The notes under the pieces are model-generated. The model saw only the letters and a list, made by a program, of their open reading frames with translations, did not search any database and was not told the DNA's origin. Below, in pieces: positions 3,152 to 31,834 of a stretch of 64,000 nucleotides of DNA; the stretch's first letter is position 1, and each line of letters begins with the position of its first letter. The position numbers and the translations under genes were made by a program. The stretch is taken from positions 33,976 through 97,975 of the forward strand of contig CAYVOL010000003.1 of assembly GCA_964453135.1 (NCBI GenBank), given 5' to 3'. The DNA comes from an uncultured Candidatus Saccharibacteria bacterium. GTDB taxonomy: Bacteria > Patescibacteriota > Minisyncoccia > UBA6257 > UBA9933.

Positions 3152-4435
3152 ATGAATTTCACTAAATCGCAAAGCGTTATTATTTTAATCGGCGTTGCCG
3201 TTGTTTTGTTTTTCATTTTGGGGCTTTTGGGAATTATTCCTGTTTTTAAGACACCGCAGGACCGCAAGCCGGTTCAAGAAATCAGTCTTTCCATTTGGGG
3301 AATTGACGATAAATCTTTTTTTGAAGGAGTTTTGGATAAATTTAACCAATCTAACAGAAATATATCCATAAGCTACCGGTCTTTTGACGAGGCTTCTTAC
3401 GAGAACGCTCTCTTAAACGCCTTAGCGACCGGACAAGGGCCGGATATTTTTATGTTTCACCGCAGTTGGCTAAAAAAACACGGCGACAAAGTAGCCATAC
3501 CGTCAGCCACTCAGATTTCTTTGCCTGTTTTTCGCCAGCTTTTCCCCGATATTGCGGAAAGAGATTTTGTTTCCGACGGGAAAATTTATGCCCTGCCTTT
3601 GTATTTAGACACGGTGGCGATGTTTTACAACAAGGATATTTTTAATAATAAGGCCATCGCGGTTTTGCCGAAAACCTGGGACGATTTCCGTCTTTTAATT
3701 CCCTATTTGACCGAATACGACGTTAACCATCAGATTGTTAAATCCGCCGCCGCTGTCGGCGGGTCGGGAAAATCAATCAGCAAAGTCAGCGACCTTTTAA
3801 GTGCCCTGATGATTCAAAGCGGTTCGTCCATAGCGGATAGTTCGCGGATAAATAATTTTGACGCTCCGGCTGTTAAGGCGTTTGATTTTTATCTTCAATT
3901 CGCCAACGCCGGAAATGCTTACTACACTTGGAATGACGGGCTGGGCAATTCTCTGGATTCTTTTTCTGCCGCGAAAACCGCCGTAATTTTCAACTACGCC
4001 CGTTCTTTGGCGGATATTAAACGGAAAAATCCTTTTCTTAATTTTGCCGTTGCTCACTTGCCGCAATTTAATCCTTCCCAGCCGAAAAATTACGCCGACT
4101 ATTGGGGGTTGGCGGTGTCTAAACAAAGTCTTCATCCCGAGGAAGCGTGGAATTTTGCCATTGACCTTACTACCAACGCCAATACTAACTCAATGTATTT
4201 ACAGTCCAGCGGTTTGCCGCCGGCTTTAAGGACTTTGATCAATCAATACCAAAACGATGCTAATTTGAGTGTTTTCAGCCGGCAAGCGCTAAGCGCTTAC
4301 GCCATTTCCTATTCCGATAAAAATAAATTTGATTCCGTTATCTCCGATATGATAGAAGCTGTGCTGACCGGCAAGGCGAGCCAATCAGACGCCCTGGATC
4401 AAGCCCGGTTGAAATTAGCCGCCGGGGTTCAGTAA
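3152..4435 (+). CDS. membrane-anchored extracellular solute-binding protein family-1-like protein
   Basis: N-terminal TM anchor followed by a roughly 390-aa periplasmic-binding-protein-like region (PDIFMFHRSWL..., LYLDTVAMFYNKDIF). No cognate ABC permease or ATPase lies nearby. Confidence 0.5.
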   Translation: MNFTKSQSVIILIGVAVVLFFILGLLGIIPVFKTPQDRKPVQEISLSIWGIDDKSFFEGVLDKFNQSNRNISISYRSFDEASYENALLNALATGQGPDIFMFHRSWLKKHGDKVAIPSATQISLPVFRQLFPDIAERDFVSDGKIYALPLYLDTVAMFYNKDIFNNKAIAVLPKTWDDFRLLIPYLTEYDVNHQIVKSAAAVGGSGKSISKVSDLLSALMIQSGSSIADSSRINNFDAPAVKAFDFYLQFANAGNAYYTWNDGLGNSLDSFSAAKTAVIFNYARSLADIKRKNPFLNFAVAHLPQFNPSQPKNYADYWGLAVSKQSLHPEEAWNFAIDLTTNANTNSMYLQSSGLPPALRTLINQYQNDANLSVFSRQALSAYAISYSDKNKFDSVISDMIEAVLTGKASQSDALDQARLKLAAGVQ

Positions 4436-4485
4436 TACCCGTAAATTATAAATTAGTTTCACGGTTCAAGTTTTAAGTTTTTCGC

Positions 4486-6195
4486 ATGCTTCATCTTCCT
4501 GTCCACAAACTAAAAGAAACTTTAATCGCCGATCAGCTTATTACGGCGGAAAATTTTGAAGAAATTTCCCAAGAGGGCGAGCGGCTTAACCAGAGAATTG
4601 AAGACATTTTAATTTCCCGCGGAATTGTTTCCCCTGATTATCTTTATAAATTTTTAGCCCGTTATTTAAACGTGGAGCTTATAGATTTGGACGAAGCCAA
4701 AATAGACCGGCAGGTTTTGCGTCTTTTGTCGCCGGATTTGGCTAATCAAAAGAGGGTCATTCTTTTCAAAAAGGAAGCGGATGGAATTTTGGACGCGGCA
4801 ATGGAAGATCCCAGTGATTTGAAGACCATTGAATTTCTGGAAAGATTTTTGAAAGCGAAAGTGAAGCCGTTTTTAGTGCGGCCTGTTGATATGGAAAAGG
4901 GGTTTGCCATTTACAGCCGCCAGCAAACAGAGGATTTTAAAAAAACGATTCAGGAAAATGTTCAGCACAGTTTGCAGATAAGGGAGCAGAATATAGAAAA
5001 AGCGGCCAATGCCGTTCCGGTGGTGGCTTTGGTGGAAAATTTTCTCGCTTACGCCGCAACATCGCGCGCTTCCGATGTTCATATTGAGACTTTGGAAAAC
5101 GAAATTGTCGTCCGCTTCAGGATTGACGGAATTCTTCGCGAAATAATCCGCATTCCCAAGGAAGCTCATCTTCCTATTTTGGCCCGGTTGAAACTTTTAT
5201 CCAACTTGAAAATTGACGAACACTATAAACCGCAGGACGGACGTTTCAATATTAAAGTCGGAGAGGAGAAGGTGGATATCCGCGTTTCCATTATGCCCAC
5301 AATTTTTGGAGAGAAGATTGAAATGCGTCTTTTGCCTGCCACGCAAAAGCCGCTGTCTTTTGAGGAATTGGGAATGATGGAAGACACGATTAAATTATTT
5401 AAGGAAAATTTGGAAAAAACTTTCGGCATCGTTTTAGTTTGCGGGCCGACAGGAGCGGGAAAAACCACCACTCTTTACGCGGTGTTGAATATTCTTAACA
5501 AGCCCGAAGTCAATATTGTGACCATTGAAGACCCCATTGAATATTACATAAAATACGTTAATCAAACGCAGGTTAATACGACAGCCGGGATTACTTTTGC
5601 CAATGCTTTGCGCGCTTTTCTGCGGCAGGATCCTAATATTATTATGGTCGGCGAGGTGCGCGATGAAGAGACGGCGGAAATTTCCGTTCATGCCGCTTTG
5701 ACCGGACATTTGGTGTTGTCGTCTCTTCACACTAACACCGCCGCCGCGGCTGTGCCCCGTTTGATAGACATGAAAGTTCCTCCTTTTCTGGTATCGGCGG
5801 TTCTTAACGCTGTTTTGGCGCAACGTCTCGCGAGAAAAATCTGTCCCAGCTGTATAGAATCTTTCTCTTTGAGCGAAGAACAAATTAGCATCATCACAAA
5901 TCAGCTGAAAGAAATAGAGGGGCACGCCGATTTTGAATTGCCGAAGATATCTTTTCACGGCAAGGGGTGTTCGGCCTGCAACTTCAGCGGATATCAGGGG
6001 CGCGTTGGCATCTTTGAACTTCTTAATATTGACAACGAAATCAGGGACCTCATCAATTCCCCGCAATTCGCTTTGGATAAGATGGAGCAATTGGCAAAAA
6101 AGAAGGGAATGATTACAATGTTTGAAGATGGCTTACGCAAGGTGGGCTTGGGAATGACAACCGTTGAAGAGGTGTTAAGGGTTATCAGGGAATAG
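4486..6195 (+). CDS. pilB: type IV pilus assembly ATPase (PilB/GspE family)
   Basis: Walker A is VLVCGPTGAGKTT. Asp and His boxes are present, and a tetracysteine CPSC...CSAC zinc motif typical of GspE/PilB. There is an N-terminal GSPII_E_N-like domain. Confidence 0.9.
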   Translation: MLHLPVHKLKETLIADQLITAENFEEISQEGERLNQRIEDILISRGIVSPDYLYKFLARYLNVELIDLDEAKIDRQVLRLLSPDLANQKRVILFKKEADGILDAAMEDPSDLKTIEFLERFLKAKVKPFLVRPVDMEKGFAIYSRQQTEDFKKTIQENVQHSLQIREQNIEKAANAVPVVALVENFLAYAATSRASDVHIETLENEIVVRFRIDGILREIIRIPKEAHLPILARLKLLSNLKIDEHYKPQDGRFNIKVGEEKVDIRVSIMPTIFGEKIEMRLLPATQKPLSFEELGMMEDTIKLFKENLEKTFGIVLVCGPTGAGKTTTLYAVLNILNKPEVNIVTIEDPIEYYIKYVNQTQVNTTAGITFANALRAFLRQDPNIIMVGEVRDEETAEISVHAALTGHLVLSSLHTNTAAAAVPRLIDMKVPPFLVSAVLNAVLAQRLARKICPSCIESFSLSEEQISIITNQLKEIEGHADFELPKISFHGKGCSACNFSGYQGRVGIFELLNIDNEIRDLINSPQFALDKMEQLAKKKGMITMFEDGLRKVGLGMTTVEEVLRVIRE

Positions 6196-6206
6196 TTTGA
6201 AATTTT

Positions 6207-7424
6207 ATGAGGTTTCACTATGTTGCCGCTCAAAACGACGGCAAGACAATTGAAGGAGAAACGACAGCCAGCGATGCGGCGGAAGTTTTGAGTTATCTGG
6301 TTTCCCGCGGGTTAAAACCCATTTCTTTAAAAAAGGAGAAATCTTTTGAAGTCAAAAACGATTGGCGCTATCTTTTTCGTTCCGCCATCACGATTGAAGA
6401 CAAGATTTTTCTCACCAAATATCTTGCATTGATGTTGAAAACCGGCAGCGACCTTTTCCGCGCCATTGATATTTTAATCGCCGATTTTGACAAGCCGTCA
6501 ATGCGTTCTTTTCTTTACGAGATTCGCGAGAATCTGGAGCGCGGCCAGGCTTTTTACCGGATTTTTGCCCGTTATCCGCGGTACTTTTCCACTGTCTTCG
6601 TTAATTTGGTAAAAGCGGGAGAGACTACTGGAACTTTGGATAAAACTTTTGAAGATTTAAGCAAAAGTCTTCAAAAAGAAGATAGCCTTCGCCGTGAAAT
6701 CAGTTCTTCTTTAATCTACCCGATAATTTTAGTGATGCTTTCTTTGGGAATTGTTTTTATTCTGGTCAGTTTTGTTTTGCCGAAAATTTCTGATTTGTTC
6801 AGCAGCGGCAATTTTAACCCTCCTCCTTTTTCCCGCATAGTGTTTGGCGTGGGCCGCTTTTTTAACGATTATCTTCTGGTATTTTTAACTTTTTTCTTTG
6901 TCTCGGGAGCGGGATTGTTTTTGGCTTGGCGCCAGTCGGCGGTGTTCAGGCAGATCGCCCACACTTTATTTTTTCGCGTTCCTTTGGTTGGTCCGGTTTT
7001 AAGAAGAATATCCCTGCAAAGATTCTGCTCCACGCTCGGGGCTTTATTGGCTTCGGGAATCCCTTTGGTTGATTGTTTGAATATAACGGCGCAAGTGGTG
7101 GGCGACGAAGAAATGAAGCAGGCGCTTTTAAGGATTTCCCAGGAAGGAGTCTTGAAAGGGGTGGTTTTGGGTGACGCTTTTAAAAGAGAGGCGGTTTTCC
7201 CCCGGGTGCTTGTCAATTTAATCGCCATTTCGGAGAAAGGAGGAAGTTTGTCCGCGATACTTATCACTTTATCCGATTTTTACGAAGGAGAAATAAAAAC
7301 TTCCCTTAAGACGATGCTTACTTTTTTGGAGCCGGCGCTTTTGGTTTTTATCGGCGCTATTGTCGCTTTGATCGCCGCGTCCATTTTGGTCCCCATTTAC
7401 CAGTTGTTCGGAAGTTTTAAGTGA
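6207..7424 (+). CDS. pilC: type IV pilus inner-membrane platform protein (PilC/GspF family)
   Basis: 405 aa with duplicated T2SSF-type domains and three TM segments. It sits immediately downstream of pilB. Confidence 0.9.
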   Translation: MRFHYVAAQNDGKTIEGETTASDAAEVLSYLVSRGLKPISLKKEKSFEVKNDWRYLFRSAITIEDKIFLTKYLALMLKTGSDLFRAIDILIADFDKPSMRSFLYEIRENLERGQAFYRIFARYPRYFSTVFVNLVKAGETTGTLDKTFEDLSKSLQKEDSLRREISSSLIYPIILVMLSLGIVFILVSFVLPKISDLFSSGNFNPPPFSRIVFGVGRFFNDYLLVFLTFFFVSGAGLFLAWRQSAVFRQIAHTLFFRVPLVGPVLRRISLQRFCSTLGALLASGIPLVDCLNITAQVVGDEEMKQALLRISQEGVLKGVVLGDAFKREAVFPRVLVNLIAISEKGGSLSAILITLSDFYEGEIKTSLKTMLTFLEPALLVFIGAIVALIAASILVPIYQLFGSFK

Positions 7425-7513
7425 AATCGTGTTAAGCGTCAAGTATTAAGTGTCAGGCGCGAATGTTTATGTTTCAAGAATTAAAACATCTTTGTGATAA
7501 ACGGATTTATTCC

Positions 7514-7972
7514 ATGCATAAAATTTTGCGCATGGGGTTCACTTTGGTGGAAATTCTTATTGTTTTGGGAGTGATCGCTGTTCTGGCTTCGTTTACCGGT
7601 TTGAATCTGGTGGGCATTTATCACCAGCGGAATTTAAACAATTATTCTTTGAAAATTGTTTATATTTTGCGGGCGGCGCGTGACAAGTCTATTAATCAGG
7701 AAAACGCCAGCGGGTGGGGCGTCCATTTTGATAATTCTTCCAGCAGCTTTGCTTTATTCCAGGGGAGCAGTTATAATTCAGGAATAGTTTATCAATATAT
7801 TAGGTTGAGTTCCGATGTTCAATTTGTCGCTCCGGCTTCCGGTCAAGATATTGTCTTCGCCAAAATTACCGGTTTGCCTAGCTCCACTTCTTCCGTTATA
7901 ATTTCTTTAGTTAATGATGCTAATACTTCCAGTACCATCACTATTAATTCCAACGGAGAAACAAGCAATTAA
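7514..7972 (+). CDS. type IV pilin/pseudopilin (prepilin-type N-terminal cleavage/methylation domain)
   Basis: Class III signal MHKILRMG|FTLVEILIVLGVIAVLA with Glu at +5. The ORF track opens at 7463 and 7514 is the first ATG giving a short leader. Confidence 0.7.
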   Translation: MHKILRMGFTLVEILIVLGVIAVLASFTGLNLVGIYHQRNLNNYSLKIVYILRAARDKSINQENASGWGVHFDNSSSSFALFQGSSYNSGIVYQYIRLSSDVQFVAPASGQDIVFAKITGLPSSTSSVIISLVNDANTSSTITINSNGETSN

Positions 7973-8049
7973 TCTAGTTCATAAAAGTTCGTAAAGTTTT
8001 TAAGATTAATAAAGTCAAAATTAATCAAGGTCGCTAATAATAAAGACAT

Positions 8050-8586
8050 ATGAAAATATTTAACAGCGGGTCGCGGGGTTTTACTCTCATAGAGCTTTTG
8101 GTGGTTATTTCTATTATCGGCATTTTGGCCGGCATATTTTTGAACAAAATAGGAGATTTCCGAAAGCAAGCGGAGGATGCCAGAAGGTTGGCTGACTTGC
8201 GGCATGTCCAGACATTACTGGAGCTTTTTTACAACAAGTGTAATCTTTATCCCGCTAACGGAGTTGACCCGGCGACCTGTACTTCGGCACCGCAGAATGC
8301 AACCCCTGGAGAACTTACATGGGATAATCTTAGAACAAATCTCGTTAACGCGGGAATAGGCATTGTGTCTAAAGATAATATACCGAAAGATCCCGATGCT
8401 AATAGGAGTTATCAATATATAAGCGATGGCTCCAATTATGTTTTGCGGGCTGATTTGAAAAAAGACAACCAGGTTCTGAAAGATAGCGCCAAAAACAATG
8501 GTATAAAAGATGCTTTTAAAAGCCTTATAAATTGTGATACAGCCGACAGTGCCAATGAGCATTACTCTTATTGTATAGAGTTTTGA
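8050..8586 (+). CDS. type IV pilin (candidate major pilin, PilA-like)
   Basis: Leader is MKIFNSGSRG|FTLIELLVVISIIGILAGIF. Two C-terminal Cys pairs (CNLYPANGVDPATC; CDTADSANEHYSYC) suggest disulfide-bonded loops. Confidence 0.75.
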   Translation: MKIFNSGSRGFTLIELLVVISIIGILAGIFLNKIGDFRKQAEDARRLADLRHVQTLLELFYNKCNLYPANGVDPATCTSAPQNATPGELTWDNLRTNLVNAGIGIVSKDNIPKDPDANRSYQYISDGSNYVLRADLKKDNQVLKDSAKNNGIKDAFKSLINCDTADSANEHYSYCIEF

Positions 8587-8587
8587 T

Positions 8588-9490
8588 ATGGCAGTTTATT
8601 TTTTTCTTTTTATTTCTGGTTTGGCGGCCGGCAGTTTTTTGAACGTTATTTCGCTGCGATACTGCGAGTTAAATTCGGAAAATAATCCAGAAGCCAGAAG
8701 CTATAACCTAAAAGCTATTATTGGCGGCCGGTCGCGATGCCCTCATTGTCAAAAAACTTTAAAGTGGTATGAACTCATACCGCTTTTTAGTTTTGTCGTT
8801 CAAAAAAGACGTTGTCGGAATTGCGGAGAAAAATTATCCTGGCAGTATCCGATTGTGGAGATTTTAGCCGGATTAATTTTTGTTTTTGTCCCGTTTTCTT
8901 TGAATCATCTTTTGGGTTTTTCGGGGAGTTCGGATGTATTCGTAGTCTTGTATTCTATTGTTTGGATTTTTATTTTTTTGCTTTTTCTTCTTCTTTCCGC
9001 CATTGATTTTCGGCTTTATATTATTCCCGATTCCGTAAATTTATCATTGGCAATCTTGGGCGCGTCTTTGATTGTTTTAAATTCTAAACCTTATATCCCG
9101 AATTCTAATTACTCACTTTCTTTCCTTGGCTATTACTCTTCGCTTTTTCCGCAAATCAATAATGTTTGGCTTAATCATTTGTCCGCCGCTTTTCTGGCAA
9201 TGTTTTTCTTTGGCGCCGTAATTTTAATAACCAAGGGGAGGGGAATGGGCTGGGGAGATTTTAAATTAGGGGGCGCCTTAGGAATTATTTTCGGCTGGCC
9301 GGATATTTTAGCGGTTTTGGCTTTGGCTTTTATTGTCGGCGCTCTGGCAGGAGTTTTCTTATTGACAAAAGGAAAGAAAAAAATGAAAGACGCGGTTCCT
9401 TTCGGTCCGTTTTTAGTAATAGGGGCGGCTTTGGTTTTCTTTTTCGGCTATAATATTTTGCAGATTTATTTTAGGATTTTTTTGCTATAA
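8588..9490 (+). CDS. pilD: prepilin peptidase (A24 family, PilD)
   Basis: N-terminal zinc-binding CPHC...CRNC tetracysteine followed by a polytopic membrane domain with the conserved GxGDFKLG-like region (GMGWGDFKLGGALG). Confidence 0.85.
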   Translation: MAVYFFLFISGLAAGSFLNVISLRYCELNSENNPEARSYNLKAIIGGRSRCPHCQKTLKWYELIPLFSFVVQKRRCRNCGEKLSWQYPIVEILAGLIFVFVPFSLNHLLGFSGSSDVFVVLYSIVWIFIFLLFLLLSAIDFRLYIIPDSVNLSLAILGASLIVLNSKPYIPNSNYSLSFLGYYSSLFPQINNVWLNHLSAAFLAMFFFGAVILITKGRGMGWGDFKLGGALGIIFGWPDILAVLALAFIVGALAGVFLLTKGKKKMKDAVPFGPFLVIGAALVFFFGYNILQIYFRIFLL

Positions 9491-29096: not shown

Positions 29097-29921
29097 ATGA
29101 TTCAAATGTTTCACTCATTTTTTAAAAGAATAATTCAATTTTTGCTGAAATGGATGGCGAAGGTTTATCTTTGGGAAACGCGGCCTCATGTGATAGTAAT
29201 AAGCGGAACAACTGGTAGATTTTGGATAAAAGAAAAAATCGTGGAAGCTCTCGGGGAGACCAGTCATTTTGTCAGGGCCAACAAGAAAAATTTTAACGCG
29301 GAACTCGGGCTCCCGCTCTCTATTTTGGATTTGCCTTCGGGCAACGGATCTTTTTGGGGCTGGATTAGCGTTTTGCGGCAGGGGGTTTCAGTGATTACTC
29401 ACACTATCAGACGTTCGCGCACGCGCAAGTCTTTTTATCTGGTTTTGGAGATGGCAATTGATCGGCCGGAAAATATGAATTATTTGCTGAAAATCGTTAG
29501 GCCTAACGCCGTTATTTTAACCAACATCACCATGATTTATCAGGAAAATTTTGAGGACTTAGACGAAATTTCCGGAGAATACCGCCAATTGGTGAAATCT
29601 CTGCCTTGGGATGGAATTTTGATTCTTAATAATGACGACGAACGGATAAAAAACTTAAGCCAATTTTTTGACGGAAAAACTATTTTTTACGGATTGAAAG
29701 ACGGAGCTCATTTTCGGGCCATGGATATTATAAGAGAGATAGACGGACAGCGATTTAAGATTGAGGTCAACGGCAAGGAAAAAGAGATTTTTCCGCTTAA
29801 AATTAATCGTTTTGGTCGGCATCATGTTTACGCGGAGCTGGCGAAAAAAATTATTTTAGATAATTTTAAGGCGCCGCAGAGAGATTTTTTCGGAAAAATT
29901 TTAGACGTGGAAAGTCACTAA
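29097..29921 (+). CDS. Mur-ligase-family protein (MurF-like), short and with a degenerate P-loop
   Basis: VIVISGTTGRFWIKEKIVEAL aligns with the Mur ligase GTNGKTT P-loop but reads GTTGRF. ...NFNAELGLPLSIL and ...PNAVILTNI match Mur ligase central-domain blocks. It is only 274 aa and the C-terminal domain is absent. It sits next to mraY, as murF does in dcw clusters. Confidence 0.45.
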   Translation: MIQMFHSFFKRIIQFLLKWMAKVYLWETRPHVIVISGTTGRFWIKEKIVEALGETSHFVRANKKNFNAELGLPLSILDLPSGNGSFWGWISVLRQGVSVITHTIRRSRTRKSFYLVLEMAIDRPENMNYLLKIVRPNAVILTNITMIYQENFEDLDEISGEYRQLVKSLPWDGILILNNDDERIKNLSQFFDGKTIFYGLKDGAHFRAMDIIREIDGQRFKIEVNGKEKEIFPLKINRFGRHHVYAELAKKIILDNFKAPQRDFFGKILDVESH

Positions 29922-29945: not shown

Positions 29946-31745
29946 TCACGCCACCTCCTGTTTGTAGCACTCATCGCAGTAGATGATCTCGGGTCGGTCA
30001 GGGGAATAGGAGGTTTGGAAGGTATTGGGACAGGGATTGGTTCCGTGGAAGTGCTTTGATGTATTCTGGTATTGGTTCTGGTTTTTCAGTTGAGAGGTCT
30101 GGCCTTGGCATTCGCATTGTCTTTCCCAGAGTTTCAAAGGGTTTCTTTGTTTGATTCTCTGGTAATGGCGGCAGTTGGGGCAAAGTCTGGGGAGGGGAAG
30201 ATTCATCTTCCGGTAGAAATCAAGCTCGGGTTTGATGATTTTGAAGGCTTTGGTGCATTGTTCGTTGCAATGGGAGGCGCTATGGGAACATTCTATGACT
30301 TGGCCTACTATGGAGTCTTCTACATCCTTTATATGGTCGGGGAGAGATTCTGAGGGGAGGTCTATTTTGAGGTCTCTATTGGCTTCTTCTTTCCACCTAT
30401 ATCCCTGGCTTTCTGCTTGTTCTTGGGTTAGAGGGAAGTATTCCTGAGCAATGGTTTCGTTGTAGGAGAAGGGAGACAATTCCGGAGGGAAGAATTCTCC
30501 GTACTTGTATATTCTTCCTTGTTTATCTATATAGGGAAGAGTATTCATATGATCTATTATTCTGGGGACTAGTTTTTCATATTCTTCCTTGGTGTATTGC
30601 TTGTTGAGGATACAATACTGCTTGTTGCGGAGGCCTACGCAGCCGAAGAGGTGGGAGGAATTTTGACACCACATTGAATATTGTGTGTCATAAATATCGG
30701 GCACAAGCGGCTTGCTTCCCCACATATTCCAGCAAAAATGCGTGTTATACCCAAGACCTTCTACGAGTTCATACAAAAGATCTCCTCCAGCTATCGCCGT
30801 ATCGAAGCAGTCACGACTTTTATAGAAAAAAATAAGCTGGCAATAAGAACAATCTTCCAAATTTTGGCAGACAAATGAATGTTTGGTGTTTTTACAATGC
30901 TTAAGATAATCGCCGGAAACATTGTTGTTGTTTCTTCCGTGATAGAATTTTTTAGGAAATTGCAGTTGAAATTTTTGCAAGTCATTGTTGAATTTCAAAG
31001 TGCCGTTATAAGAGCCAAGGTCAAACGTTTTCAATTTTTGGAAATATTCTTCCCGGGAGTAGGGATGGTTGAAAATGTGGTATTCTTTGTTTTTTAAGCT
31101 AACGCAACCGAAACAATCGTGGCAATTAATCAGATTTTTGGAAAAGAAAACATTACGACACTCACTGCATTCCGAAGAAAAGAAAACATTGTGGCATTTT
31201 TTGCAGTCGTAGAGCCAATAGCATAATTCTGAACTTTGAACCTCGTCAATATCAAGGGAATCTTTTGTTTCGCTTATGGTTTCTCCATAAGCGATGTTTT
31301 CCGAATTGCCTATATTGAAAGCAAGGTAACAATTTTTGATATTAACCGCTTGATTGCAATAATCGCTGTTGATGTCATTTAAGGCGCCGCGGTGCGGCCA
31401 GGGCATTTTTAACATAGACTCTTTTATTTGTTCAAAAAATGACCTGTTGAAATCATAATCTTTCCCGTATTCCATTGCGTCCCATTTGTCCGACCAAAAA
31501 TAGTCTTCGTGGTAAACTTTGACTGGAGAGTCAGGGGAATACATGGCGATAACTTCTTTGTCTTCTCCTTCAATTTTCCGTTTGTATAAAGTCCGGGTGT
31601 TGCGGAAATTCATTCTTCTAGCCGCCCGGCATTCCGGACAGAACGTCGGCGCCGGAACTTTGATTTTGTTGTAAAACTCAAAATCCTCCGGTTTTATGAT
31701 AAAGTTTTGTTTGCAATTTTGGCAAGATTTTTTTTCGGGATTCAT
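29946..31745 (-). CDS. cysteine-rich protein of unknown function with duplicated terminal zinc-ribbon-like motifs
   Basis: 599 aa with about 40 Cys and many Trp/Tyr/His. N-terminal FIIKPEDFEFYNKIKVPAPTFCPECRAARRMNFRNTRTLYKR and C-terminal FKIIKPELDFYRKMNLPLPRLCPNCRHYQRIKQRNPLKLWERQCEC are clear internal homologs. The central region has repeated CxxC...VFFS units. It is the only minus-strand gene in a + strand block. Confidence 0.5.
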   Translation of the reverse strand: MNPEKKSCQNCKQNFIIKPEDFEFYNKIKVPAPTFCPECRAARRMNFRNTRTLYKRKIEGEDKEVIAMYSPDSPVKVYHEDYFWSDKWDAMEYGKDYDFNRSFFEQIKESMLKMPWPHRGALNDINSDYCNQAVNIKNCYLAFNIGNSENIAYGETISETKDSLDIDEVQSSELCYWLYDCKKCHNVFFSSECSECRNVFFSKNLINCHDCFGCVSLKNKEYHIFNHPYSREEYFQKLKTFDLGSYNGTLKFNNDLQKFQLQFPKKFYHGRNNNNVSGDYLKHCKNTKHSFVCQNLEDCSYCQLIFFYKSRDCFDTAIAGGDLLYELVEGLGYNTHFCWNMWGSKPLVPDIYDTQYSMWCQNSSHLFGCVGLRNKQYCILNKQYTKEEYEKLVPRIIDHMNTLPYIDKQGRIYKYGEFFPPELSPFSYNETIAQEYFPLTQEQAESQGYRWKEEANRDLKIDLPSESLPDHIKDVEDSIVGQVIECSHSASHCNEQCTKAFKIIKPELDFYRKMNLPLPRLCPNCRHYQRIKQRNPLKLWERQCECQGQTSQLKNQNQYQNTSKHFHGTNPCPNTFQTSYSPDRPEIIYCDECYKQEVA

Positions 31746-31785: not shown

Positions 31786-31834
31786 ATTTTATCAGAAATT
31801 CCCCCCCCCGCAACAATAAAATGGGGATAACTTT
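31786..31834 (-). promoter_or_regulatory. promoter of the Cys-rich gene, with AAAGTTATCCCCAT upstream motif and a C9/G9 homopolymer in the spacer
   Basis: The minus strand reads aaagttatccccattttattgTTGCGGggggggggaatttctgaTAAAATcg. The motif is at 31821-31834, the -35 at 31809-31814, the G9 tract at 31801-31809 and the -10 at 31786-31791. Confidence 0.45.

Follow-up and report, generated by a model that had tools for sequence, protein, structure and literature searches.

In this study, we show that a cysteine-rich protein encoded in a 64,000-nucleotide stretch of DNA from an uncultured Candidatus Saccharibacteria bacterium (assembly GCA_964453135.1, contig CAYVOL010000003.1, positions 33,976 to 97,975; the whole stretch is referred to here as the window) belongs to a family that is genetically coupled to VirD4/TraD-like type IV coupling protein (T4CP) ATPases which do not lie beside a type IV secretion apparatus. 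To our knowledge, this coupling of the ATPase and the family has not been described previously. The window copy itself is a lone paralogue located away from any ATPase gene and near comM and uvrD. We infer its function from genomic context only, this copy being an unlinked paralogue.

The open reading frame (ORF) was confirmed exactly as originally predicted, at 29946..31745 of the minus strand with 599 aa beginning MNPEKKSCQNC, and its start codon agrees with the N-termini of all close relatives in the alignment. The gene is real and looks like any ordinary gene of the chromosome. The original prediction, made from the sequence of the window, was largely right in its description of the protein and largely wrong in its interpretation of it as a surface or acquired protein; about 40 Cys had been counted where there are 33, together with 18 His (5.5% and 3% of the residues, respectively). 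The features of the gene are as follows.

29946..31745, minus strand: complete ORF, 599 aa, 71 kDa, isoelectric point 6.4, 33 Cys, no signal peptide or transmembrane (TM) segment
31590..31733, minus strand: N-terminal finger 1, residues 5-52, treble clef of the zf_Tbcl type (ligand residues C8, C11, C36 and C39), then a basic helix; charge +6
31461..31589, minus strand: N-terminal finger 2, degenerate, residues 53-95, homologue of a CxxC-x17-CxxC (zf_Tbcl_2-like) finger, ending in a conserved W-x-S-D-x-W-D
31380..31460, minus strand: conserved helix/linker, residues 96-122, with D98, F103, Q106, L110 and P115 nearly invariant
31038..31379, minus strand: β-solenoid module 1, residues 123-236, eight 12-residue coils (128-223) and a cap, FGC-x-x-L-x-N-K-x-Y-x-I-F-N-x-x-Y-S-x-E-E-Y
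30936..31037, minus strand: helical linker, residues 237-270, variable and less conserved than any other segment (entropy 2.88 bits)
30570..30935, minus strand: β-solenoid module 2, residues 271-392, second copy of module 1, with shifts of register, a low-confidence loop at 346-349 and the cap FGC...ILNKQY(S/T)KEEY
30306..30569, minus strand: highly conserved acidic region, residues 393-480, HM..(P)Y.D..GR.Y.YGEFFP.ELSPF.YNET.AQEYFPLT.E.A...GY.W.; charge -8; predicted local distance difference test score (pLDDT) 92-98
30123..30305, minus strand: C-terminal finger 1, residues 481-541, repeating the zf_Tbcl-type N-terminal finger (ligand residues C486, C497, C522 and C525), with a basic helix; charge +6
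29949..30122, minus strand: C-terminal finger 2, residues 542-599, C544-x-C546...H565-x-H567...C572...C590-x2-C593, homologue of N-terminal finger 2 with an inserted His/Cys loop
31786..31816, minus strand: putative promoter read from the sequence, TTGTTG (31816-31811), a 19-nt spacer and TG-a-TAAAAT (31794-31786)

The protein matches more than 8,000 clusters at 90% identity, the best 120 of them being 49-58% identical to it and nearly all full-length; almost all are unnamed or 'hypothetical' and come from Patescibacteria/Parcubacteria groups. An exhaustive search of 50%-identity representatives returned 3,826 clusters at E ≤ 1e-3 and 1,530 at E ≤ 1e-30, and a scan of species-representative genomes found at least 597 loci, with record titles that are almost all Patescibacteria (Giovannoni-, Jorgensen-, Staskawicz-, Nomura-, Sung-, Lipton- and Magasanikbacteria, Paceibacterota, and Minisyncoccia). 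To judge from these searches, this is a very large uncurated family centred on the Patescibacteria, mainly Parcubacteria/Paceibacteria. The statement that the family is not recognised stands, since neither a curated model nor a paper describing it was found. The gene had also been called isolated. It belongs to this very large family, whose members usually stand in tandem arrays, the window containing a single copy: 2-10 co-directional copies within about 14 kb were found in 56 of 85 loci, with ten in a row in L005 ('Patescibacteria group bacterium AH-259-L07'), eight in L073, seven in L084, and six in L001. Copies of one array share 29-57% identity, and a cross-genome pair reaches 57%, which indicates that the paralogues are ancient and retained rather than recent amplifications.

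One neighbour family stands out among all the non-family ORFs of the family-centred loci when these are clustered: 43 proteins in 25 of 83 loci, with 26 of these proteins immediately adjacent to a family gene. These recurrent neighbours are VirD4/TrwB/TraD-like ATPases (TrwB_AAD_bind PF10412, TraG-D_C PF12696, DUF87), and in one locus (L013) the ATPase and the family gene alternate three times. The reverse test, in which 80 independent metagenome loci were collected from a 494-aa subtype of the ATPase, found the family within 5 kb in 62 of the 80. Moreover, of the 69 loci that extend far enough past the ATPase gene, 33 have a family gene on its strand that begins no more than 700 nt downstream. 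In L087, the genes for DUF8128 (3845-5227), the ATPase (5479-6963), and a family protein (7001-8806) lie in this order. The recurring order is SecD-SecF-[Sigma70_r4+HARE-HTH]-DUF8128-small TM protein-T4CP-(CutA1)-family gene(s). The ATPases are soluble, and it is the upstream DUF8128 protein that carries an N-terminal TM segment, in addition to the small TM protein. DUF8128 and the ATPase look like a split coupling protein, and in L077 (8706-11504) the two are fused into one protein of 932 aa. The block from SecD and SecF through Sigma70_r4+HARE-HTH, DUF8128 and a 55-aa TM protein to the ATPase is conserved in Parcubacteria (L087 3845-6963; loci L093-L172). A longer ATPase subtype of 560-720 aa (L013 3914-5914, L001 12605-14776, L009 4203-5939) ends in a CxxCGK...VPFxPxxxRPVYCxxC finger (PF23477/TIGR04272), and the second finger of the family is of the same type as this CxxC-x17-CxxC finger at the C-terminus of the ATPase.

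A further conserved operon partner was sought among 142 other flanking proteins and rejected: they are assorted housekeeping proteins, and only CutA1 recurs, in 6 of the 142. CutA1 ('divalent ion tolerance') is thus the second commonest neighbour, and it often lies between the ATPase and the first family gene (L087 8907-9212, L006 7895-8200).

The neighbour ATPases share TrwB_AAD_bind, TraG-D_C, and DUF87 with VirD4/TraD/TrwB and CedD, and give remote matches to TraD, VirD4, and CedD. The arrangement of a membrane anchor, an ATPase, and a cytoplasmic partner is likewise similar to that of a T4CP and its client. However, they score far under every cut-off for curated T4CPs (e.g., 53 vs. 366 bits), and they are soluble, with a separate DUF8128 anchor. 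None of the known type IV secretion substrates or adaptors resembles the family protein, no relaxase turned up among the flanking genes, and the neighbour T4CPs usually do not lie near virB4. T4CPs serve type IV systems as receptors for the substrate (PMC12102498). A 2025 survey of Patescibacteria counted 5,713 VirD4-like T4CPs in 2,918 genomes, of which 148 were near virB4 while relaxases were almost absent, and its authors suggested that the T4CPs of these bacteria were exapted for another function (PMC12102498). A search of the literature found no description of the family, of DUF8128, or of PF13451 and PF23477, and for T4CP/VirD4 it gave only this survey with its orphan T4CPs.

Several observations concern copies at other positions. 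In L091, a 1.39-Mb contig, eight family-size genes (550-579 aa, no Pfam hit; assigned by size, not by homology) lie within 20 kb (753745-773418), and three divergently oriented genes for TrmB-type helix-turn-helix (HTH) regulators come after pairs of these genes, which suggests cassette-wise regulation in that lineage. In two of the closest relatives (L004 8001-10830 and L086 7001-9836; 56-57% identity), recA begins 8 nt past the family stop codon, and FtsK is encoded three genes upstream of the family gene in one of them. DNA-recombination genes recur in this way beside family copies that are not linked to the ATPase, and the window gene is itself divergent from comM and uvrD. A short-form subfamily of about 550 aa occurs in Gracilibacteria, Peregrinibacteria, and a few genomes that are not Patescibacteria-like; one short-form contig encodes IMPDH, GuaA, pyruvate:ferredoxin oxidoreductase, and a fragment of a type III secretion/flagellar-type ATPase. 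Non-typical relatives (L090 8001-10196, which is P0216, as well as P0273-P0278, P0280, and P0287; one labelled Bdellovibrionales) carry N-terminal fusions to GCN5-related N-acetyltransferase (GNAT) or inositol-monophosphatase-like (IMPase) domains, and the gene for P0216 comes immediately after der (EngA), within a cluster of the composition IscS-MnmA-MiaB-like-RNase III-Der. The L065 locus, whose protein is 44% identical to that of the window, belongs to a metagenome-assembled genome titled 'uncultured Gammaproteobacteria'; essentially all other loci are from Patescibacteria, and the label is probably a binning or labelling error.

The two termini had been predicted to be homologous to each other, which BLASTP bears out (residues 16-63 vs. 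502-548, 42% identity, E = 2e-12). In a profile-profile self-alignment of 31 relatives, the homology is longer than first noted (5-86 vs. 491-597, E = 1.6e-14), so that each end is a double treble-clef zinc-finger module and not a single module of ~45 aa. The C-terminal copy is therefore homologous as stated, but it does not sit at the extreme end of the protein: its residues are ~491-541, and a second finger comes after it at 542-599. Of 176 relatives, 91-99% have the ligand cysteines C8/C11/C36/C39 and C486/C497/C522/C525, the figure for N-terminal finger 1 being 95-97%; model pLDDT is 96-97 at the latter and 88-96 at the C-terminal finger, which has additional H488 and C493 within an inserted loop. 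N-terminal finger 1 matches zf_Tbcl (PF13451) at residues 7-45 with 17.9 bits (E = 0.003), under the Pfam gathering score of 24, and in Foldseek searches of BFVD it matches models of phage 'zinc-ribbon domain' proteins with a root mean square deviation (rmsd) of 0.6 Å over 42 residues; the treble-clef fold also matches HNH-associated and MYM-type fingers. Among the 31 relatives, 11 match PF13451 (E ≤ 0.1) and 5 match PF23477.

The second fingers depart from their type in different ways. At the N-terminus all four Cys are lost, the ligand positions being I58, E61, H79, and Y82 in the window protein; these positions are Cys in about half of the family in an all-or-none manner (phi 0.99-1.0 for three of them). 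At the C-terminus the second finger has the form CxC...CxxC with a 40-residue insert and not CxxC-x17-CxxC. The ends of the protein thus share the CxxC...CxxC signature of zf_Tbcl (PF13451) and zf_Tbcl_2 (CxxC-x17-CxxC; PF23477, TIGR04272), two Pfam families which themselves have no known function. They differ from them in that the zf_Tbcl score is below threshold, the fingers make up only about 170 of the 599 residues, and the N-terminal second finger lacks ligands.

The middle of the protein is repetitive, as had been noted from its 'CxxC...VFFS' repeats, but the CxxC and CxC units belong to the coils of a β-solenoid and do not constitute separate metal motifs. Residues ~123-236 are duplicated at ~272-390 (E = 4e-9; profile E = 6e-26), and module 1 holds 'CKKCHNVFFSSECSECRNVFFS' repeats. 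Within residues 123-226, each of the ten Cys occupies a position ≡ 1 mod 3 across eight 12-residue coils, as does every Cys-prone column of 127-223 in the alignment of 176 full-length relatives, and period-3 spectral power is 25-31 compared with <4 in control regions. At registers 3/6/9/12 of the coil, 58-74% of the residues are small (C/S/A/G/T); acidic and aromatic ones hardly ever occur there, and basic ones only at register 9 (10%). Registers 1-2 form a conserved aromatic ladder, and registers 4-8 are hypervariable (2.8-3.4 bits) except for the inward register 6 (2.2 bits), leaving one solenoid face conserved and the opposite face hypervariable. Cys outside the fingers and the coil 205-214 have 15-60% occupancy per position and are exchanged with Ser, Ala, Val, or Leu, and covariation among the solenoid Cys is absent (mean phi about 0, -0.13 at i+6). 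Because these Cys occupy inward every-third positions, are freely swapped with Ser/Ala/Val, and do not covary, they seem to serve core packing and not metal sites. Disulfide or metal pairing of the solenoid Cys was rejected on the covariation analysis, and the mid-protein Cys are on this pattern unlikely to be metal ligands. Metal binding by the protein, which had been proposed, is accordingly predicted for the terminal CxxC...CxxC fingers with their invariant ligands and zf_Tbcl/zinc-ribbon matches, but not for the variable (C/S/A/V), uncorrelated Cys of the middle. In one exceptional coil, positions 205, 208, 211, and 214 are 73-98% Cys in the family, with Leu at 205 in the window protein; this coil could be one extra structural site in most members. 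The iron-sulfur patterns CxxxCxxC and CxxCxxCxxxCP were looked for in the protein and not found, the sole CxxCxxC run (208-214) being this same coil.

An AlphaFold2 model built with 150 relatives is a compact fold with pLDDT 91.0 and a predicted template modelling score (pTM) of 0.92, while a shallower alignment gave pLDDT 81.8. Short strands at 197-200, 209-212, and 221-224 lie 12 residues apart. Foldseek searches found nothing in the PDB and only the finger in BFVD with the pLDDT-82 model. With the pLDDT-91 model, PDB matches were insignificant, the best being left-handed β-helix enzymes (E ≥ 0.04, template modelling score <0.1). These results therefore support the solenoid class but match none of the known folds. 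Each first finger has a net charge of +6; the core is acidic, with -8 in module 1, -1 in module 2, and -8 in residues 393-480. The suggestion of a surface protein was not borne out, there being no signal peptide or hydrophobic segment (the top 19-residue Kyte-Doolittle mean is 0.88), and these features predict a soluble, cytoplasmic protein. The whole protein gave only the sub-threshold zf_Tbcl match in Pfam, NCBIfam, PADLOC, and PHROGs, and searches of PDB sequences with the single protein and with the 31-sequence profile returned only noise (LIM domains, E about 0.2; an aminopeptidase, E 0.36). The original prediction would have been contradicted by host-like composition together with an unambiguous match to a characterised family, for example that of a radical-SAM maturase or ferredoxin; Pfam, NCBIfam, and the PDB gave no match of that kind.

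The core invites comparison with known repeat folds. The Tenebrio molitor antifreeze protein (TmAFP, PF02420), a right-handed β-helix, likewise has 12-residue coils, small inward residues at every third position, and one flat variable face; its repeat is TCTxSxxCxxAx. However, the window protein has no Foldseek match to it, its Cys are unpaired, it has neither a signal peptide nor a Thr-x-Thr ice-binding ladder, and its solenoid is embedded in a 599-aa multidomain protein. An antifreeze relationship was considered and rejected: the PF02420 hidden Markov model gave no match at E ≤ 10 to module 1 of 9 family members or to a whole L005 paralogue, and a precomputed 'AFP (weak)' flag in L005 was not reproduced. 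GlmU, LpxA/LpxD, and γ-carbonic anhydrase, with their left-handed hexapeptide β-helix, are the top Foldseek matches and show the β-solenoid local geometry of the core. They differ in that the matches are poor (E ≥ 0.04, probability ≤0.08, template modelling score <0.1, rmsd 15-22 Å), the period of 6/18 is absent (3/12 instead), and the protein has neither an acyltransferase motif nor a match to the Pfam hexapeptide models. By analogy, the pentapeptide-repeat DNA mimics Qnr and MfpA may also be compared, being acidic β-solenoids that act, or possibly act, on DNA-handling ATPases; they differ in their period (5/20 vs. 3/12), in the lack of a Pfam pentapeptide hit here, and in that two solenoids are packed here in a globular finger protein (pTM 0.92).

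In the window, the gene is flanked by housekeeping genes for an S11 D-Ala-D-Ala carboxypeptidase, MraY, and a short Mur-ligase fragment and, divergently, for ComM/YifB, UvrD, and KsgA. It had been noted that it is the sole minus-strand gene from MraY to ComM, which is true but trivial, because this stretch has three genes. The Mur-ligase gene (29097-29921, plus strand), just upstream of the ORF on the forward strand, encodes a 274-aa protein with the Mur-ligase middle domain (PF08245) only; since a normal MurF/MurE is far longer, this may be a truncated, split, or degenerate gene. GC content is 0.413 and GC at third codon positions (GC3) 0.480, against window means of 0.427 ± 0.030 and 0.451 ± 0.049, both within 1 standard deviation, and the codon-usage distance is 1.09 compared with 0.82 ± 0.16 for the window and 0.84-1.29 for other minus-strand genes. 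The reported G+T skew relative to the neighbours is thus a strand effect, because the raised codon-usage distance is common to other minus-strand genes; compared with the other genes of the window, the composition is host-like. No DNA tandem repeats were found within the gene.

A 'special promoter' had been described ahead of the gene. It comes down to a G9 run (31801-31809) inside the 19-nt spacer between the −35-like TTGTTG and the extended −10 TGaTAAAAT, with the start codon 41 nt downstream of the putative −10 element; a consensus promoter scan did not list this site. The run is the only long homopolymer in the window, and its frequency does not go beyond chance, with 0.52 expected per window and at least one in 33 of 100 shuffles. 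If its length changed, the spacing of the promoter would change with it, as happens in phase-variable promoters. None of 189 other family genes has such a homopolymer tract upstream (0/189), so that the family as a whole is not characterised by phase variation, and an assembly artefact is not excluded as the origin of the run.

Taking these results together, we tentatively favour, with a probability of roughly 0.4, the reading that the protein is a client or adaptor of the orphan T4CP-like ATPases. The basic finger modules would act as handles that bind nucleic acid or the ATPase complex, which would be anchored in the membrane via DUF8128, and the variable solenoid face may provide paralogue-specific recognition; at the membrane, the ATPase would then move the protein or else DNA that the protein holds. 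DNA handling is plausible because the ATPases are remotely similar to TraD/VirD4 and to the archaeal DNA importer CedD, and because unlinked copies have RecA, ComM, UvrD, and FtsK genes beside them or within a distance of a few genes. The chief alternative to DNA handling is that the protein is itself exported. A bolder and rather speculative idea, which we consider unlikely, is that the family and DUF8128/T4CP form an unrecognised VirB4-independent translocation module of Patescibacteria which would account for the function of thousands of orphan coupling proteins, with the family proteins as specificity adaptors or cargo, for example, in DNA hand-over to or from the ATPase, in bacteria that rely on scavenging nucleic acids, or in delivery to the host cell. 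Several points weigh against the client or adaptor role. There is no T4CP gene anywhere in the 64-kb window, and about 70% of the family-centred loci have none within 6 kb, so that many paralogues are unlinked from the ATPase. The linkage could partly be inherited synteny and not selection, since the loci compared come from related genomes. Conservation across the family is 35-58%, which is unusual for exported effectors. Lastly, the relatives that are not Patescibacteria-like are single-copy genes in housekeeping or RNA-processing contexts, some with GNAT or IMPase fusions, and these outliers would fit a general nucleic-acid- or protein-binding role without an ATPase.

Such a role is the substance of a competing explanation which we regard as somewhat unlikely but worth weighing, namely that the protein is a stand-alone DNA/RNA-binding protein independent of the ATPase, in which the finger handles would hold nucleic acid, the solenoid would recruit or block factors, the paralogues would be specialised for their targets, and the ATPase linkage would be incidental synteny. 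The basic finger modules with an Arg-rich helix after each, and the resemblance of the treble clef to phage zinc-ribbon, HNH-associated, and MYM-type fingers, are in keeping with it, and so are the ComM/UvrD neighbours in the window, the recA gene directly downstream of two closest relatives with FtsK three genes upstream of one, the GNAT-fused relative in the IscS-MnmA-MiaB-like-RNase III-Der operon, and the TrmB-type regulators interspersed in one array. However, it leaves the strong two-way association with T4CPs unexplained, the other flanking genes are a random housekeeping assortment, and beyond the generic finger there is no match to a known DNA- or RNA-binding family. It is also conceivable, if doubtful, that the proteins are exported effectors or surface components that leave the cell via T4CP-linked machinery without a Sec signal, the paralogue arrays being a host-interaction repertoire; this would amount to the surface protein of the original interpretation, delivered along a non-classical pathway. 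In its favour, the family has multi-copy arrays in obligate epibionts with very small genomes, the cluster stands beside SecDF and the membrane-anchored DUF8128, and T4CPs are known as substrate receptors (PMC12102498), although only 148 of 5,713 lie near the virB4 channel gene (PMC12102498). Against it, fingers of the Zn(Cys)4 type, of which there are four, typically occur in intracellular proteins, and the paralogue subfamilies are old and conserved and not fast-evolving. The hypervariable solenoid face and coils of 12 residues as in the secreted insect antifreeze proteins speak for export, whereas the solenoid Cys show no pairwise covariation, which makes disulfide ladders unlikely.

Two further explanations carry little weight in our judgement. 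A metal-storage, buffering, or redox protein, in which the many Cys, those of the middle included, would bind Zn, Fe, or Cu, is improbable. The content of 5.5% Cys and 3% His, the recurrence of CutA1 (6 of 142 flanking genes), and the coil with four consecutive inward Cys are compatible with it, but the remaining Cys outside the fingers are only 15-60% occupied, exchangeable, and uncorrelated (phi about 0; -0.13 at i+6), no ferredoxin or radical-SAM motif or match was found, and the coil has Leu at 205 in the window protein. It is most improbable that the gene is a recent acquisition from a foreign or mobile element, the other half of the original interpretation. Its strand opposite to the neighbours and its codon-usage distance could be read in that way, but GC and GC3 are within 1 standard deviation and the codon shift is common to other minus-strand genes; homologues are absent from 50,697 phage and 72,556 plasmid records, 2.9 million viral contigs hold one marginal partial match only, and the family is widespread on Patescibacteria chromosomes across the phylum. 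Horizontal transfer was set aside on this composition and on the absence from phages and plasmids, with the one marginal viral-contig match. No integrase, repeat, or tRNA signal turned up around the gene, where no search aimed at them was made.

With regard to the biology of these organisms, Patescibacteria make up a large share of bacterial diversity and have genomes of about 1 Mb, yet they carry up to about 18 kb of tandem copies of this family. About 80% of the protein length has no sequence or fold relative in the form of a curated model or a matched fold, and the structure is of interest in its own right as a cytoplasmic 12-residue β-solenoid with a Cys/Ser core and duplicated double zinc fingers on both sides. 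The link to the ATPase bears on a published question, that of about two coupling-protein homologues per genome in the absence of a type IV apparatus (PMC12102498). The family is a candidate partner for these orphan T4CPs of Patescibacteria, and gene pairs such as the L087 ATPase (5479-6963) and family gene (7001-8806) make the orphan-T4CP question directly testable.

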